Positions 23,912 through 64,000 of a stretch of 64,000 nt of DNA are shown here, piece by piece. The translations under genes and the position numbers were made by a program. This DNA is from a virus. The stretch lies in the IMG/VR virus record IMGVR_UViG_3300020472_000012, positions 1 to 64,000 of that record. The stretch is one strand, 5' to 3'. Numbering within the stretch: the first letter of the stretch is position 1; each line of letters begins with the position of its first letter. The notes under the pieces are model-generated. The model saw nothing but the letters and a program-made list of their open reading frames with translations. It made no database searches and was not told the origin of the DNA.

Positions 23912-24936
23912 GTAAATGTCCTATAGACCACTCTAAACCAAAGAAGTCTATAAGAGCATCTGGAACATTTGATAGGAGTGAGACTCATACTATCAAGTTT
24001 ACTACGCCTTGGGATGATGCATTTGATGTATTCCAACCAGTTCCGATGTCCGAAGCACAACCAGATTGGTGGAATAAACTATCAATATATGTCCATGATG
24101 ACAAGTTTACTAAACAACAAACTGGTAAAGGATGTCCATCTATGCATGATATTATGAATACTGGGTACATTATTAGAACCCACAAGACTATATTAGTTGT
24201 TCAAATACCAGATTGTGAAGACAAAGAAGAACCATATAGTGACCCAGAGTTTCAATGTACTTGGTGTGATGAGACATGTGACCCAGAATCAGAAGTAGGA
24301 AAGAGACATAGAAGGTTACACAACCACGACCAAGGCGGTACTGCATATGTAATTAAAGATGAATATGTAGAAGATATGACTCAATATATGAGAGAATGTA
24401 TCGAAAATGATGTAGGTAGAAGAGATATGTATTTCGATTTACTCAATGAAGAACATCAATCAAACAAATGGATTGACTGGAGATATGAAATAACAGGTGG
24501 TCACAATGGCGGTCAACTGTTAGGTTCAGATTTTGACCATAGGTTGTCTATAAAATTCAGACAGCCTTGGACAATTTCTACTCCAGAAGGTACATCGTGT
24601 TATTGGTTAGACCCATTTCTAAAGATGAATGACAACTGGACAGCAATGCAAGGTGTCATTGATACTGATGGGTTTAACCAAATTGATACGAATTGTATAA
24701 CAATTATACATCCATTAACTAATGAAAACTTTATTATACCGAAAGGAACACCAATTGTCCAGATAGTTCCCTTTGTTAGAACTAAGTGGAAACACGAATT
24801 GGAATTAAATATGGACATAAAACAAGACTTCATGCATACACCAGAGATGAAAGAGTTGGGAGAAAAGGGTGAGAGTGGTGATGGTAAAAAGAATGTTTAC
24901 AGAAAAAACTTCTGGGAAGTAAAGGAGTTTAAGTAA
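23893..24936 (+). CDS. DUF6065-like protein (dUTPase-like beta-clip C-terminus)
   Basis: QPDWW, GCPSMHD...GY, PW.I.TPEG.S, GVIDTD, IPKGTPIVQIVPF; alternative TTG start at 23875. Confidence 0.65.
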   Translation: MGKEEVGKCPIDHSKPKKSIRASGTFDRSETHTIKFTTPWDDAFDVFQPVPMSEAQPDWWNKLSIYVHDDKFTKQQTGKGCPSMHDIMNTGYIIRTHKTILVVQIPDCEDKEEPYSDPEFQCTWCDETCDPESEVGKRHRRLHNHDQGGTAYVIKDEYVEDMTQYMRECIENDVGRRDMYFDLLNEEHQSNKWIDWRYEITGGHNGGQLLGSDFDHRLSIKFRQPWTISTPEGTSCYWLDPFLKMNDNWTAMQGVIDTDGFNQIDTNCITIIHPLTNENFIIPKGTPIVQIVPFVRTKWKHELELNMDIKQDFMHTPEMKELGEKGESGDGKKNVYRKNFWEVKEFK

Positions 24937-25676
24937 TGTTACATCAATTATTTCCAACTAATGTATTCACTTTTAACATGATAGGGGATGACCCATACTA
25001 TCAGATGTCAGAAAAGAACTGGGATAAGTTAATTAAAGAGTCTTATACCATGAGAAAGAAAGACCCAGTAGGAAGATTTAGGTCAAATGATGAGAGTGGA
25101 TGGCAGTCTAACGATGGTGTAGAGAACAATGCAGTCTTCCAACCCATGCTTAATAGAATGAATAGGTTCTTTGACAAGGAAGTATTTCCTTTCTATGGTG
25201 CAACTGATAACGAATTAAAACTACAACATGGTAATTATTGGGTTAATATAAATGGATTAGGTGGTCATAATCATGCACATACACATCCAGGCTGTTGGTA
25301 TTCTGGAGTAATATACCTACAAGTACCTAAAGGAATGGATAGAGGTGGACTACAAATCATAGACCAGAACATAAAACACATGTCTCAGTTCCCTTTAATG
25401 TCTAACAGAAGTGATATGTGGTGGAGAGTTCAACCAGAAAAAGGATTATTAATATTATTTCCTTCTGGAATATATCATTTCGTAGAACCTAACGATGCAG
25501 ATGGAGATAGAATTTCTATTGCATTTAATAATTCTTTTGTTGATAGACAAGTTATTGCAAACCATTACGATGAACTTCCTTATGGAATGGTTAACACACA
25601 TCCAGAACAAACACCAAAAAGATATGATGATAGTATAGTAGTGCAACCAGATGGCACTTTAGAATTCCCTAAATAG
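24936..25676 (+). CDS. 2OG-Fe(II) oxygenase, TIGR02466-like
   Basis: GWQS; WVNIN...HTHPGCWYSGVIY; LILFPS.IYH.V.PN; RISIAFN. Confidence 0.88.
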   Translation: MLHQLFPTNVFTFNMIGDDPYYQMSEKNWDKLIKESYTMRKKDPVGRFRSNDESGWQSNDGVENNAVFQPMLNRMNRFFDKEVFPFYGATDNELKLQHGNYWVNINGLGGHNHAHTHPGCWYSGVIYLQVPKGMDRGGLQIIDQNIKHMSQFPLMSNRSDMWWRVQPEKGLLILFPSGIYHFVEPNDADGDRISIAFNNSFVDRQVIANHYDELPYGMVNTHPEQTPKRYDDSIVVQPDGTLEFPK

Positions 25677-58726: not shown

Positions 58727-59023
58727 ATGAGTGATATAAAGTATAAATTTAACGAACCCAAACTATTGAAAGAAATAGCAGATTATGTAACTACTACCTA
58801 TGAACAACATTATGGTGGTGGTAAATATCAGGCAACTGATATGATAATTGACTCTGGACATGGTGAGGGTTTTTCAGTAGGTAATATTATGAAGTATGCA
58901 ATGAGATATGGTAAGAAAGGTGGTAAGAATCGTCAAGACTTGCTTAAGATTGTACATTATTCTCTTATTGCTTTATATAATCATGATGAAACATCAAGTA
59001 GTGAGGTAAAAAATGAATCTTAG
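58727..59023 (+). CDS. DUF3310-like protein
   Basis: TYEQHY...GF..GNIMKYA.RYGKK...DLLKI.HY. Confidence 0.8.
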   Translation: MSDIKYKFNEPKLLKEIADYVTTTYEQHYGGGKYQATDMIIDSGHGEGFSVGNIMKYAMRYGKKGGKNRQDLLKIVHYSLIALYNHDETSSSEVKNES

Positions 59024-59681
59024 TGATGATACTCTTGAAGTCCTAGACAATTTTTCAGATATTAACTCTGGAATTACTGTTAGGGTGGGGCAAGAGTTAA
59101 AAACAATTTCCCCAATGAAAAACATTTTTGGTACAGCCAAAATATCTGAGAACTTTGATAAAGAGTTTTCGATATATGACTTATCAGAATTTCTTGCAAC
59201 TTTATCGTTGTTCGATGCACCAACTTATGAGTTTGGTGAGAAAGAAGTTGTAGTTAGTGAAGGTGGTAATAAAGCAAGGTATGTGTATGCAGACCCTTCA
59301 ATGATTATTACTCCAGAGAAAGATATAACAATGCCTAATCCAGAGATTGTATTTGAATTAGATAGTAATACTCTAAGTAAAGTACAAAAGGCTGCAAATG
59401 TTCTATCGTTGCCAGACTTAGTTTTGGAATCAGATGGTACAATTGTTCTTCTTGCAGTAAGAGATAGGAAACTAACTGACTCAAGTAATGAGTTTGGTGA
59501 GAAGATTGCAGATGGTGATGGTAGTGTCTATTCAATGAACTTCAAGATAGAGAACTTGAAAGTATTGGATGATGATTATACAGTGTATGTATCATCAAAA
59601 GGTATTTCACACTTTGTTTCAAAGAATAAAGGTGTAGAATATTTCATTGCATTAGAACCAGATTCAAAATATGGGGCATAA
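59013..59681 (+). CDS. gp45: Sliding clamp gp45
   Basis: L.NFS.IN; F.IYDL.EFL; YFIALEPDS. Confidence 0.93.
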   Translation: MNLSDDTLEVLDNFSDINSGITVRVGQELKTISPMKNIFGTAKISENFDKEFSIYDLSEFLATLSLFDAPTYEFGEKEVVVSEGGNKARYVYADPSMIITPEKDITMPNPEIVFELDSNTLSKVQKAANVLSLPDLVLESDGTIVLLAVRDRKLTDSSNEFGEKIADGDGSVYSMNFKIENLKVLDDDYTVYVSSKGISHFVSKNKGVEYFIALEPDSKYGA

Positions 59682-59809: not shown

Positions 59810-60742
59810 ATGACAGAAGAATTTTTATGGGTAGAGAAGTATCGTCCAAAAACTATTGAGGATTGTGTACTTCCATCACAAATCAAACAAACCTTTTTTG
59901 ACTTAAAAGGTGAAATTCCAAATATGATTCTTAGTGGTTCTGCTGGAACTGGTAAGACTACTGTTGCACGAGCATTGTGTGAACAAGTTGGTGCAGATTG
60001 GATTATCATTAATGGTTCAGAAGAGAGTGGTATTGATGTTCTTAGAACAAAGATTAAAAACTTTGCTTCTACTGTGTCGTTGGGTGGTGGAAACAAAGTT
60101 GTTATTCTCGATGAAGCAGATTATCTAAATCCACAATCAACCCAACCAGCATTGAGAGGATTCATCGAAGAGTTCCATAAGAACTGTAGATTTATCCTAA
60201 CATGCAACTTCAAGAACAGAATAATACAACCTTTGCATTCAAGATGCACTGTAATAGACTTTAGAATACCAGCTAATGAAAGACCAAGACTCGCATCTGT
60301 ATTCATGGCAAGATTAATGACAATCTTAACTGAGGAAGGTGTGAAGTGGAATACAGAAGTATTACAAGAACTGGTAATGAAATACTTTCCAGACTTTAGA
60401 AGAACTATAAATGAACTACAGAGATATGGAACTAGTGGTGAGATTGATGTAGGTATCTTAACTAATGTCCAAGAAGAAAGTTTAAAAGAACTAATGTCTC
60501 ATCTTAAAACCAAAAGGTTTACTGATATGAGACGATGGGTTGCAATGAATGTTGATAACGACCCAGTAATGCTATATAGAAAGTTGTATGATAGTTTATA
60601 TGAAACTGTCGATAAATCAACAATCCCACAAGCAGTTTTAATTATTGCAGATTATAGTTATAAGTCTGCATTTGTAGCCGACCAAGAAATTAACTTGGTT
60701 GCATGTTTAACCGAACTAATGATGGAGTGTAAATTTTCATGA
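59810..60742 (+). CDS. gp44: Clamp loader large subunit gp44
   Basis: LWVEKYRP; GSAGTGKTT; LDEAD; SRC; FPDFRR. Confidence 0.96.
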   Translation: MTEEFLWVEKYRPKTIEDCVLPSQIKQTFFDLKGEIPNMILSGSAGTGKTTVARALCEQVGADWIIINGSEESGIDVLRTKIKNFASTVSLGGGNKVVILDEADYLNPQSTQPALRGFIEEFHKNCRFILTCNFKNRIIQPLHSRCTVIDFRIPANERPRLASVFMARLMTILTEEGVKWNTEVLQELVMKYFPDFRRTINELQRYGTSGEIDVGILTNVQEESLKELMSHLKTKRFTDMRRWVAMNVDNDPVMLYRKLYDSLYETVDKSTIPQAVLIIADYSYKSAFVADQEINLVACLTELMMECKFS

Positions 60743-60906
60743 AACAATTTAAAGAATGGATAAACAGGGACAACAACAAATTTACTTTTGTTGGTGCCTT
60801 CTGTCTATTGGGTATGACAGTTACATGGGGTGATGGTATGGCTGAGTTTGCAACATTTTCAGCAATATTTGTTTTTTGTGTAATTAGAAAAGTGCTAAAT
60901 ATATAA
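60739..60906 (+). CDS. 55-aa two-TM protein (not in ORF track)
   Basis: MKQFKEWINRDNNKFTFVGAFCLLG...FSAIFVFCVIRKVLNI; ATGA overlap with gp44. Confidence 0.55.
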   Translation: MKQFKEWINRDNNKFTFVGAFCLLGMTVTWGDGMAEFATFSAIFVFCVIRKVLNI

Positions 60907-60907
60907 T

Positions 60908-61102
60908 ATGGAATACGAACTAGTACATTATATACTTTTAGGTCTCCTTGTTGGACTCGCATATTGGCATGGTCATAAGACTGGAGTCAATGCTGGTGCA
61001 GAAGGAATGTATGAACATTTATATAATAGTGGGACAAGAAAAGAAGATAAGGTTATTGTTGCATTAGAATATGAAGATAGACATTATAAAAAGGATTTTT
61101 AA
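60908..61102 (+). CDS. Small protein with N-terminal TM segment
   Basis: YILLGLLVGLAYW.G...G. Confidence 0.6.
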   Translation: MEYELVHYILLGLLVGLAYWHGHKTGVNAGAEGMYEHLYNSGTRKEDKVIVALEYEDRHYKKDF

Positions 61103-61866
61103 TGGAACAACCAACACTATCAAAAGATTTATTTAGAATCAAACTCAATGTTGGGTTAGACTATAGATTTATTGCTGATTGGTGTATAGAACATGAACAT
61201 CATCCATACTTCTCACATGATGAAGATGGGGTTGCAACACCAAATCAATTTAGTGATAATCTAAGGTCATATGTTAGAGGTTCCAAAGAAGGTATAGATT
61301 TTGGTGAAGATGGTGTAGCAGATTTAGAAGAGAAGACTAAAGACATAGAATATTATCATACCTATAATCCATTTTCATTTGGATTAAGACCATTTGCAGA
61401 TTTATACTGGAAGTTAAATGAGTTCTTCTATTCAGACCCACAAGTTAACGAGGCTGGTGAACCATATTACATTCATGGATGGTTTAATGTATATACAAAG
61501 AAAGATGAAGACAATAAAGGGTATGACCACATCCCTTGGCACAAACATATGGAAGTTTATCATCCACATATCTATCATGGATTTTATTGTGCAAATGTAC
61601 AACCTTCTCAAACTTGGTACAGAGAGGGCCCAGAATCTACAGAGGAATCGTGGTTAAAACATACAGACTATGATGATATGATAATATATTCACCATCATC
61701 ATTTGAACATGCATCAACGCCATGGCTTGAAGACAAACCTAGAGTGACGATTGCATTTGACATTATTCCAGAGAGTGTTTATCTCTCAGAACATAATATT
61801 GGTAACTATCAATGGGGATTAGAACCAAGACAATATCAATCAATACCATTTCCTAAATGCATATGA
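61102..61866 (+). CDS. 2OG-Fe(II) oxygenase-like protein (HxH type; paralogue of 30585-31220)
   Basis: HGWFNV; WHKH; YHG; EH; PRVTIAFDIIP; IPF. Confidence 0.75.
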   Translation: MEQPTLSKDLFRIKLNVGLDYRFIADWCIEHEHHPYFSHDEDGVATPNQFSDNLRSYVRGSKEGIDFGEDGVADLEEKTKDIEYYHTYNPFSFGLRPFADLYWKLNEFFYSDPQVNEAGEPYYIHGWFNVYTKKDEDNKGYDHIPWHKHMEVYHPHIYHGFYCANVQPSQTWYREGPESTEESWLKHTDYDDMIIYSPSSFEHASTPWLEDKPRVTIAFDIIPESVYLSEHNIGNYQWGLEPRQYQSIPFPKCI

Positions 61867-63128
61867 ACTATTTTCAATACACATTAAATGATTTAGAACA
61901 CAATTCTGCAAAGAAAGAATTCAATTACATTACCTTCTTTGCTGGTGGTGGTGGAAGTTCTTGTGCATATAAACTTGCTGGTGGTGATGTAAGATACATG
62001 AATGAGTTTCAACAGATTCATGTAGATACTTACCTTGCAAACTTTCCTAATACAGTTCATGAATGTAAAGATATAAAACAAGTCACTGGTAAAGATATTT
62101 TAGAAATGACAGGATTACAAAAAGGTGAACTTGATATTATGGATGGTTCTCCACCATGTCCACCATTCTCTATGGCTGGAAAGAAAAGAGAAGGTTGGGG
62201 TAAAGAGAAAGTTGCATATGGAATGAAACAACAGAACATAGAAGACCTTACTTGGGAAATGATTAGAATCGCAGAGGAAGTCATGCCCAAAGTTATAGTA
62301 TGTGAAAATGTGAAAGGTCTTTCTATGGACTATGCAAGAGACCATCTTATTAAGATGATAACAGATTTTGAAAAACTTGGGTATTCAGTTACATGGAAAA
62401 TCATGAAGGGTCATGAACATGGAGTACCACAAAAAAGAGAAAGAGTATTCTTAGTTGGTGTTCGTGATGATGTATTAGATGCAATAGGAATGCCATTTAT
62501 GTGTTTAAGTGGATTGTTTCCAGAGACAACTCCAGAAAGAATATCGATTGGAGAAGCAATTGATGACTTAATAGATGATGAAGAGAATAAGAAGGATGCA
62601 GAATATCTAGTTAATTCAATGAATAATTCATCAAAGTCACATTGGATTAATGGATTTGAGACACATCCAGACCCAGACTATGCACACTGTGGCCCATGTA
62701 AAGGGTTAGATGGTGTTGCAGATATGATGGGAAATCGTCCTTACATATCAATAGGTGATGATATTGTTGGGCCTTGGTTTGAAGAACAAATAGAAAATGG
62801 ACACTTAAAAGAAGAGGATGCAAAACATTCTTATTATATGTCAAGAATTGTTCCAAAACATCTTCCAGCACATTCACTAACTGAACAAGGATGTCAAGAA
62901 AAATTTATGGGTGGTAATCACTTCCACTATAGTGGTAAGAGGATATACACACCAAAAGAAATGGTCAGACTTATGACATTACCAAATGATTATAAGATGA
63001 CTGGGGACTATAACGATAAAGGTGCAAGAATAGGTTTAATGGTTGCACCACTATGTTTGTACTACTTAGTAGAACAAATAAAGGAACAGGTATTAAAGCC
63101 ATGGAATTCACTGCACCAAAAGACTTAG
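61857..63128 (+). CDS. DNA cytosine-C5 methyltransferase
   Basis: Motif I FAGGGG; IV GSPPC; VI ENVKG; VIII PQKRER; IX RLMTLP; X IGLMV.P. Confidence 0.93.
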   Translation: MHMNYFQYTLNDLEHNSAKKEFNYITFFAGGGGSSCAYKLAGGDVRYMNEFQQIHVDTYLANFPNTVHECKDIKQVTGKDILEMTGLQKGELDIMDGSPPCPPFSMAGKKREGWGKEKVAYGMKQQNIEDLTWEMIRIAEEVMPKVIVCENVKGLSMDYARDHLIKMITDFEKLGYSVTWKIMKGHEHGVPQKRERVFLVGVRDDVLDAIGMPFMCLSGLFPETTPERISIGEAIDDLIDDEENKKDAEYLVNSMNNSSKSHWINGFETHPDPDYAHCGPCKGLDGVADMMGNRPYISIGDDIVGPWFEEQIENGHLKEEDAKHSYYMSRIVPKHLPAHSLTEQGCQEKFMGGNHFHYSGKRIYTPKEMVRLMTLPNDYKMTGDYNDKGARIGLMVAPLCLYYLVEQIKEQVLKPWNSLHQKT

Positions 63129-64000
63129 GTTTTGACGAAACCTTTGAACGATTTAATGGGAAGTTCCTAGATGAAACTTCTTATGATACTGTTGTATCTT
63201 CTATTGGAGTAGAAGAAGATATTATCAAAATCTACAAACCAACTGGTTCATTGTTTGATAAACCATTACTTGCATGTATAGTAAAGAATACCTATCAAGG
63301 TGACACTTACCATCAAGTTAAAGACACTTTGTATTCTATAGATGATACTTCTACCATGAGAGCAAACGCTGCCGGCCCTATCGACCACGAAGAAATGAAA
63401 GCAAAAGGATTGATAGAAGGTAAAGATTATGTTCTAAGAACACCAAATTCATATTATCCATTAAAGAAGAATGGTGAATTCAATCGTATTGCAGAAGCAA
63501 ATGCAATTCATTCTGTCTTTGCTGGATATAAGAGAGGTAGATTTACTGGTATGATAGGATTATCAAACTGGTGTGAAAAGAAATCTAATATAGATAAATG
63601 GAATACAATGAAAAAGATTGCAGTTGTTAACGAACAAGCACTTAAGAAAGGTTGTCCAGATATCTGGAAACTACAAAGAACATATGCAGATGAATGTATA
63701 GAAGAGAAGTATCATTTAGGTGGTGCTCCAATTACTACATTATCTGCAAACAAATATACCAGTGAAGGGACTGCAAAGATGTCTGCACATATTGATGGTA
63801 AAGACCTAGAGTTTGGTATGACTACAATGTGTGTATTCAGATTAGGTAACTTTGGTGGTGCATATCTAACATTCCCAAGATATGGAATTGCAATTGAGGC
63901 TGATGATGGGGATGTATTGATTGCAGATTCAAACGAATTACATGGAGTCACCAAGATAGAAGGTGATGGAATAAGATTATCGTGTGTTGCATACTGTTCA
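63101..64000 (+). CDS. TET/JBP-family 2OG-Fe(II) dioxygenase, 3'-truncated (missing from ORF track)
   Basis: Open for 300 codons from ATG 63101: TTLSAN...SAHIDGKD..G...GGAYLTFPRY...GDVLIAD...LHGVT...RLSCVAY. Confidence 0.88.
   Translation, partial: MEFTAPKDLGFDETFERFNGKFLDETSYDTVVSSIGVEEDIIKIYKPTGSLFDKPLLACIVKNTYQGDTYHQVKDTLYSIDDTSTMRANAAGPIDHEEMKAKGLIEGKDYVLRTPNSYYPLKKNGEFNRIAEANAIHSVFAGYKRGRFTGMIGLSNWCEKKSNIDKWNTMKKIAVVNEQALKKGCPDIWKLQRTYADECIEEKYHLGGAPITTLSANKYTSEGTAKMSAHIDGKDLEFGMTTMCVFRLGNFGGAYLTFPRYGIAIEADDGDVLIADSNELHGVTKIEGDGIRLSCVAYCS

Follow-up and report, generated by a model that had tools for sequence, protein, structure and literature searches.

A probable post-replicative cytosine hypermodification island between gp44 and gp62 of an uncultured marine T4-like phage

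Genes of the insertion and the methyltransferase–TET pair

The IMG/VR virus record IMGVR_UViG_3300020472_000012 comprises 114,373 bp and is estimated to be 63% complete; its bases 1–64000 form the window considered here, and the reading was continued past the window edge. Close to that edge a 4.5-kb insertion, with the same G+C as its flanks, splits the clamp-loader gene gp44 (end 60742) from gp62 (start 65242) and encodes a C5 cytosine methyltransferase, a TET/JBP dioxygenase, a TET-associated glycosyltransferase (TAGT) and a 254-amino-acid (aa) protein with a 2-oxoglutarate (2OG)/Fe(II) oxygenase fold, termed orf254. An earlier prediction for this stretch (the original prediction) had put the block in the usual position of gp62 and regA; this placement has to be corrected, as the block lies between gp44 and gp62, with regA following at 65623–66021. 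The genes and open reading frames (ORFs) of the region are:

59013–59681, plus strand, gp45 clamp (family/profile matches)
59810–60742, plus strand, gp44 clamp-loader large subunit, left edge of the insertion (phrog_168, E=9e-123; PF21328 Gp44_lid)
60739–60906, plus strand, small ORF of 55 aa, without family match
60908–61102, plus strand, small ORF of 64 aa with a hydrophobic N-terminus, without family match
61102–61866, plus strand, orf254, 254-aa protein with a predicted 2OG/Fe(II) oxygenase fold, divergent PF13759 relative (fold model, remote homology)
61857/61863–63128, plus strand, C5 cytosine methyltransferase (PF00145, E=5e-49; TIGR00675, E=2.5e-44)
63101–64102, of which the window holds the part up to 64000, plus strand, TET/JBP (5mYOX) dioxygenase of 333 aa (PF12851, 49 bits against a cut-off of 34.9)
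64264–65058, past the window, plus strand, TAGT (PF20691, 33.6 bits against a cut-off of 27.5; phrog_842, E=2e-36)
65066–65245, plus strand, small ORF of 59 aa, without family match
65242–65619, plus strand, gp62 (family/profile matches)
65623–66021, plus strand, regA (family/profile matches)
66018–66887, plus strand, class-3 lipase (PF01764, E=3e-25)

For comparison, the loci of 80 gp44 relatives, taken together with 10-kb flanks, were searched with the proteins of the cassette; they fall into clade A, with gp44 at least 79% identical (33 loci), and clade B, with gp44 66–69% identical (47 loci). The nearest cultured gp44 proteins are those of Methylophilales phage Melnitz (62% identity) and Pelagibacter phage Mosig (61%), and on this sequence evidence the phage is classed as an uncultured marine T4-like relative of Melnitz and the pelagimyophages. 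A cyanophage identity was considered and rejected, there being no psbA and the closest cultured relatives being these two phages.

The TET/JBP gene runs intact from an ATG at 63101 to a stop at 64102 (PF12851, E=4.5e-13), and was missing from the ORF list of the window because it runs off the window edge. The original prediction had nevertheless recognised it, with its HxD, H and RxS residues and a 28-nt overlap with the methyltransferase; all of this is confirmed, and the possibility that the gene might be broken beyond the window is dispelled by the complete frame. The catalytic residues H230-I-D232, H281 and R292-L-S294 all lie within the window (nt 63788–63982), and none of H230, D232, H281 and R292 varies among 16 relatives (Melnitz being one of them) or among 20 more diverse homologues. 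Since the homologues are 333–334 aa long and start with MEFTA, the start at 63101 is favoured over an upstream ATG at 63053; an AAGGA stands 15 nt upstream of it. An AlphaFold (AF2) model of the protein (predicted local distance difference test (pLDDT) 82.5) was matched by CcTet, CMD1, human TET2 and NgTET1 at E values of 1e-10 to 3e-8 in a Foldseek search of the PDB; the matches listed among the top 25 PDB ranks are all members of the TET family, with other 2OG oxygenases appearing from E 1e-6. Ocean metagenomes abound in members of this family, which form more than 400 clusters at 90% identity there. The closest cultured member (51% identity) is an unannotated gene of Melnitz, the paper on which mentions a methylase only.

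The methyltransferase is most likely translated from the homologous start at 61863 (MNYFQY), giving 421 aa, rather than from the first ATG at 61857. The overlap of its start with the HxH oxygenase, also noted by the original prediction, stands: it amounts to 4 nt (ATGA) from 61863 and to 10 nt from 61857. The protein scores 168 bits against PF00145 (cut-off 22), and motif IV GSPPC and the sequence CENVKG are present and conserved in relatives. At its other end, the gene (stop 63128) overlaps that of TET by the 28 nt mentioned above, as it does in every clade-A locus with compared coordinates; the corresponding overlap in Melnitz is 20 nt. These overlaps support a tight coupling of methyltransferase and TET, both with their catalytic residue sets kept, which bears out the original reading of the two genes as a pair. 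The target-recognition domain (TRD) of the clade-A methyltransferases contains, unlike that of Melnitz, a 22-aa insert with a conserved HCGPC, located here at window positions 62650–62720 (residues about 265–290), which recalls the insert marking clade I of Burke 2021 (PMC8256090).

The closest solved relative of the methyltransferase is not a methylase: PDB 8YF3 (E=3e-70) shows SpCmoX from Synechococcus phage S-B43, a cytosine C5-carboxymethyltransferase with GC as its target (PMC12783734). CmoX-type carboxymethylation was therefore considered, in which the enzyme would make 5-carboxymethylcytosine at GC from carboxy-S-adenosylmethionine (carboxy-SAM). Apart from being the best solved match, SpCmoX has the SPPC catalytic motif (here within DGSPPCPPFS) in common with the present enzyme, as well as, presumably, a GC target, and carboxy-SAM could be supplied by the host, as in E. 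coli. However, CmoX is defined by the SPPC motif together with Arg350, the residue that binds the carboxymethyl moiety of carboxy-SAM and whose replacement in the R350N mutant abolishes activity (PMC12783734); the equivalent position in motif X is Leu here (..RIGLMVAPL..) and in 12 TET-linked relatives including Melnitz. In SpCmoX the partner is CmoA/CmoY, and here it is TET, which requires a methyl group; CmoA, the carboxy-SAM synthase (TIGR00740), had no match in the 114 kb of this 63% complete record, and family scans found no domain of an amide ligase, a frequent companion in CmoX systems, among the island ORFs. Carboxymethylation is thus extremely unlikely and was set aside on account of the Arg350-to-Leu change and the absent CmoA, for which reasons the enzyme is read as a putative S-adenosylmethionine (SAM)-dependent methyltransferase, sister to CmoX. 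The 114 kb hold no second C5 methyltransferase. Another candidate, the pre-replicative formation of hydroxymethylcytosine (hmC) or 5-hydroxycytosine through a thymidylate-synthase homologue (PMC13326640), was rejected because no such gene is present: PF00303, the thymidylate-synthase-type hydroxymethylase family, gave no match in 114 kb of an incomplete genome.

Past position 64000, where the original prediction had suggested that further genes may act on the base, a tailoring enzyme is indeed present, namely the TAGT at 64264–65058, downstream of TET. A thymine substrate for TET was weighed as well: many phage 5mYOX enzymes are thymine dioxygenases (PMC13229309), and a methyltransferase is missing from most of the 5mYOX contigs that carry a glycosyltransferase (Pyle 2023, bioRxiv 10.1101/2023.12.21.572611). 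Were the enzyme one of these, the glycosyltransferase would decorate 5-hydroxymethyluracil and the methyltransferase would be an independent gene. The thymine dioxygenases belong to other clades (5mYOX clades C1/C2), without an adjacent C5 methyltransferase and often with a ParB partner or thymine-tailoring enzymes (PMC13229309); here the methyltransferase is not only immediately adjacent but joined by a conserved 28-nt overlap, a scan of the island ORFs revealed no ParB, and the genomic footprint described below is specific to cytosine at GpC. Oxidation of thymine is, in our judgement, very improbable.

The C-terminus of TET reads ...GSLDSFL, a pattern (G-S/T-L-E/D-S/A-F-L) kept in the majority of the complete relatives, with ..NLNDFLGE at the same place in Melnitz. 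The TAGT ends in ...STITDFMV, and both tails resemble the C-terminus of the DNA polymerase of this phage (genome 79544–82033), ...SSLEEFFG; the methyltransferase and orf254 lack such a tail. We infer from these sequences that TET and the TAGT may be recruited to the sliding clamp through their C-terminal tails.

A constant oxygenase gene and a variable island

All clade-A loci whose sequence extends beyond gp44 contain the 64-aa ORF and orf254, and in about 20 loci these are followed by the methyltransferase and TET, with variable tailoring genes behind. The tailoring sets comprise one TAGT; two TAGTs with a cytidylyltransferase; an epimerase with a TAGT; a GT8 with a TAGT; a TAGT with a T4-type alpha-glucosyltransferase; and an unknown 330–420-aa protein with a P-loop kinase, as in Melnitz. 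At least seven clade-A loci have neither methyltransferase nor TET in the island, and the four of these that were annotated (L006, L019, L034 and L035) variously carry GT1-like transferases, a TAGT, a DruA-like protein, an FkbM methyltransferase, a cupin, a cytidylyltransferase, and a Tsp45I-like nuclease or an N6/N4 methyltransferase. In clade B, gp62 follows gp44 directly or past a short spacer (start about 20 nt after gp44), and orf254, the methyltransferase and TET are found in none of the 47 loci. On this comparison, what separates gp44 from gp62 in clade A is a hypervariable DNA-modification island whose 5' gene stays constant.

Two of these islands deserve separate mention. One (L016, 15433–16602) combines a TAGT, a T4-type DNA alpha-glucosyltransferase (PF11440, E=6e-74) and a cytidylyltransferase, which suggests a possible two-sugar decoration. 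In another (L006, 12046–12813, the same as L003, 6756–7523) the gene of a Tsp45I-like restriction nuclease (PF06300, E=1.7e-66) stands right behind orf254, and its 20.9 kb contain no GTSAC site compared to 15–22 in relatives, so that this phage seems to protect itself by erasing GTSAC.

The constant gene, orf254, has no Pfam match of its own in hmmscan and only a weak match to phrog_81. Its AlphaFold (AF2) model (pLDDT 74.6, predicted template modelling score 0.79) adopts a 2OG/Fe(II) oxygenase fold, and in VIA, a search independent of Foldseek, the top 50 matches are all 2OG oxygenases, the best being 2rg4 (Z 13.8), followed by prolyl hydroxylases (Z 12–13) and by AlkB, FTO and NgTET1 near Z 10. 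Several lines of evidence point to the PF13759 family, of which 2rg4 and 3bvc are members with the motifs HxH...H...R-x-S/T-I-A-F: the C-terminal half of orf254 matches the family profile at E=0.002, with 15.1 bits under the cut-off of 27; the protein aligns with one of the two ordinary PF13759 proteins of this genome (hhalign, E=4e-4); and a language-model search leads to the same family. Unlike ordinary members, orf254 stays under the family cut-off and is extended at its N-terminus by about 80 aa. Its invariant residues are H147-x-H149, H154-P-H156, H203 and R214, the last two of which align with ...YH...R-I-S-I-A-F of the paralogue; the model predicts a double-stranded beta-helix fold, and the putative metal and 2OG ligand residues are conserved. 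The two ordinary PF13759 genes lie elsewhere, at window 24936–25676 and genome 85800–86444 (E=3e-24 and 6e-11), which makes orf254 a third, divergent copy of a family the phage already uses. The subfamily is narrow, with one full-length cluster at 50% identity among 1.8 billion proteins, after which, past a gap, come proteins about 200 aa long (E 1e-19); no homologue was found in cultured phages, Melnitz included, and a single distant relative sampled for context has unrelated neighbours.

Whether orf254 takes part in the pathway bears directly on the final base, as the original prediction had proposed that the extra oxygenase may contribute to a further-modified product. As a working fourth member it would oxidise 5-hydroxymethylcytosine (5hmC) further, or hydroxylate the base or sugar, giving a base unlike those published. 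Its fold and its His/His/His/Arg motifs are intact, its stop codon shares an ATGA with the start of the methyltransferase gene wherever coordinates were compared in loci that have this gene, and it always stands at the 5' edge of the clade-A modification island. The same coupling, however, extends to whichever gene follows in the at least seven islands that keep orf254 without methyltransferase and TET, among them a Tsp45I-like nuclease or an N6/N4 methyltransferase. Conversely, the Melnitz pair, like all cultured phages, is without orf254, published methyltransferase and TET sets (with or without a glycosyltransferase) function without such a partner, the distant relative sits among unrelated genes, and orf254 lacks the C-terminal tail common to TET and the glycosyltransferase. 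Membership in the pathway is therefore unlikely, and a role of orf254 in base modification, including the further-modified base, is unsupported. As orf254 and the methyltransferase–TET pair each occur without the other, orf254 is treated as what it most likely is, a separate clade-core enzyme at the 5' edge of the variable island.

The 64-aa ORF, whose stop overlaps the start of orf254 (TAATG), lies directly 5' of it in all clade-A relatives (tblastn, 44–80% identity, 30+ loci). A promoter and terminator scan of the island gave nothing above chance, and the sole match of the region to cultured phages by DNA megablast was a stretch of 59 nt in gp44. On the 3' side of regA (genome 66018–69346), the replication genes are accompanied by three unusual cargo genes, encoding the class-3 lipase, a protein resembling Coq4 (PF05019, E=8e-14) and an Fe-S assembly protein of the HesB type (PF01521, E=3e-16).

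A proposed pathway and the genomic footprint

The locus is probably an island for the post-replicative hypermodification of cytosine, belonging to the published methyltransferase/TET (5mYOX)/glycosyltransferase type and placed inside the clamp/clamp-loader operon. This reading is built on gene identities, catalytic residues, gene coupling, synteny and the genomic footprint, and its chemistry would be that of the published relatives. Burke 2021 (PMC8256090) found that C5 methyltransferase/TET pairs from metaviromes make 5-methylcytosine (5mC) and then 5hmC in E. coli, and the glycosyltransferase step has been reconstituted by Pyle 2023 (bioRxiv 10.1101/2023.12.21.572611). By analogy, the methyltransferase would use SAM to methylate C5 of cytosine at GpC, with composition pointing to GC followed by C, T or G and not by A; TET, translationally coupled by the 28-nt overlap, would oxidise 5mC to 5hmC; and the TAGT would attach a sugar to the hydroxymethyl group. 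The genome in turn would have adapted, restriction-type sites being purged or kept only under an overlapping modifiable GpC.

The footprint was expressed as symmetrised odds ratios of the observed counts to those that base composition predicts:

CpG: 0.32 in this genome, 0.59 in clade B
GpC: 0.76 in this genome, 0.94 in clade B
TpG: 1.25 in this genome, 1.11 in clade B
GCC: 0.51 in this genome, 1.17 in clade B
GCT: 0.52 in this genome, 0.71 in clade B
GCG: 0.16 in this genome, 0.59 in clade B
GCA: 1.46 in this genome, 1.22 in clade B

The GpC imprint noted by the original prediction is upheld quantitatively against sister clade B and the cultured phage Melnitz. Simple GpC depletion (0.76 versus 0.94) is real but weak and was dropped as an imprint in itself, CpG depletion (0.32) being stronger; the information sits in context-specific and site-shielding statistics. 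The GpC deficit depends on context, with GCC, GCT and GCG rare and GCA spared. Clades I and II of Burke 2021 (PMC8256090) act at GpC[C/T], and clade I, with an extra TRD insert, also acts at GCG and not at GCA, so that the spared context is the one that clade I enzymes leave unmethylated. GCA is also the only enriched GpC context, and TGCA is 2.6-fold over the first-order Markov expectation in clade A compared to 0.88 in clade B.

Site shielding is the other component. CCWGG is flanked by a 5' G or a 3' C, which makes GCC, at 35/35 sites of this genome, at 32/32 in clade-A loci and at 23/23 in Melnitz, compared to 86/309 (28%) in clade B; from the background of this genome 17% would be expected, and the chance of 35/35 is about 2e-27. 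The same flanking rule holds for CCGG (7/7), CTGCAG (15/15) and CCWWGG (25/25); restriction-type sites survive only under an overlapping GCC or GCT. In 492 kb of pooled clade-A sequence GGWCC is absent (343 expected), and GGSCC, which contains GCC, occurs 190 times (122 expected); ACGT is found once (467 expected), ACSGT never (171 expected), GATC 116 times (1804 expected), and neither GGTACC (40 expected) nor GTGCAC (53 expected) at all. Most of these restriction-type words are retained in clade B. This genome itself has one GATC site in 114 kb and neither GGWCC nor ACGT. Modified cytosines would make up about 5% of the total if only GC[C/T/G] is marked, and 13% if every GpC is used. Taken together, the footprint fits an active, long-resident modification system.

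The CpG deficit (0.32, with TpG/CpA at 1.25; CpG in Melnitz is 0.57) is only partly accounted for by purged CpG-containing sites. It is one of two reasons to ask whether the footprint might have another source, such as a different modification system or a host-driven bias common to the clade, since CpG is more depleted than GpC and GpC modification does not predict CpG loss. The other is that two clade-A contigs, of 47.8 kb (including the DNA polymerase region) and 31.6 kb, have neither methyltransferase nor TET anywhere and retain the footprint, which is therefore not tied to a cassette at gp44–gp62 in every genome. These contigs are, however, only 18–26% complete; Melnitz, from another lineage and with its methyltransferase–TET pair at another site, follows the same shielding rule; and the spared GCA agrees with published enzyme specificity. 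An origin of the footprint outside the cassette is consequently improbable.

Besides these footprint-retaining contigs, several points weigh against the hypermodification reading. Motif X of the methyltransferase has Leu instead of the canonical Asn, and the genome record is only 63% complete. The modification chemistry of this phage and its close relatives is carried over from published enzymes, and the sugar identity is a matter of inference; the sequence context of the mark is deduced from genome composition, which other selection or mutation could shape.

The same contigs permit a more radical idea, that orf254 itself helps to write or elaborate the GpC mark beside the methylase–TET pair. 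It arises because orf254 is the sole enzyme common to all clade-A islands, and because some relatives that bear glycosyltransferases and are fully shielded lack methylase and TET across as much as 48 kb. We regard it as a long shot; if true, orf254 would represent a 2OG oxygenase that modifies DNA without belonging to the TET/JBP family.

Relation to known systems and significance

Returning to the proposed methyltransferase/TET/glycosyltransferase pathway, the clusters of Burke 2021 and Pyle 2023 resemble the present locus in their adjoining C5 methyltransferase and TET genes, a GT-A-type glycosyltransferase downstream and a GpC-centred footprint. Glycosyltransferase, epimerase or P-loop kinase genes follow TET in those clusters (PMC8256090), with an epimerase or P-loop kinase at the same place as in the relatives described here, and the neighbours include a ‘clamp loader A subunit’ (PMC8256090) and gp45/clamp genes (Pyle 2023, bioRxiv 10.1101/2023.12.21.572611). 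There is no fundamental difference; what is added is the exact insertion point between gp44 and gp62, the hypervariability of the island within one clade, and the conserved upstream 2OG oxygenase and genome-wide site shielding, neither of which is mentioned in the two studies.

The closest cultured counterpart is formed by genes 5 and 6 of Melnitz (MZ577097), whose methyltransferase is 53% identical. They share with the present locus the overlap of methyltransferase and TET, Leu in motif X, CCWGG shielding and the absence of GGWCC. Unlike here, the Melnitz order is DNA polymerase, methyltransferase, TET, a 427-aa unknown and a P-loop kinase, a position downstream of the DNA polymerase gene that corresponds to the clade II/B layout of Burke 2021 (PMC8256090); Melnitz has no TAGT there, no orf254 homologue and no 22-aa TRD insert, and its CpG is less depleted. 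The present route would probably lead to the same kind of end product as the classical hmC-glucosylation of T4 by gp42 and the alpha/beta-glucosyltransferases, a glycosylated 5hmC, here in a T4-like myovirus. The T4 route acts on nucleotides, before replication and genome-wide, whereas the route proposed here would act on DNA, after replication and at specific sites; T4 employs a dCMP hydroxymethylase of the thymidylate-synthase family, for which, as noted, no counterpart was found.

The cassette is thus a further example of already published chemistry, one more natural case in which 5mC would be converted to 5hmC and to glycosyl-5hmC after replication, in an abundant group of ocean phages. 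Comparison of about 30 relatives identifies the gp44–gp62 junction as a hot spot at which one or two TAGTs, an epimerase, a T4-type alpha-glucosyltransferase, a GT8, a P-loop kinase and nucleases are swapped behind a constant oxygenase gene. The genome may further be read, from sequence alone, as a record of the specificity of the modification and of the restriction enzymes of the hosts, and since the cultured phage Melnitz obeys the shielding rule too, the rule is open to laboratory testing.

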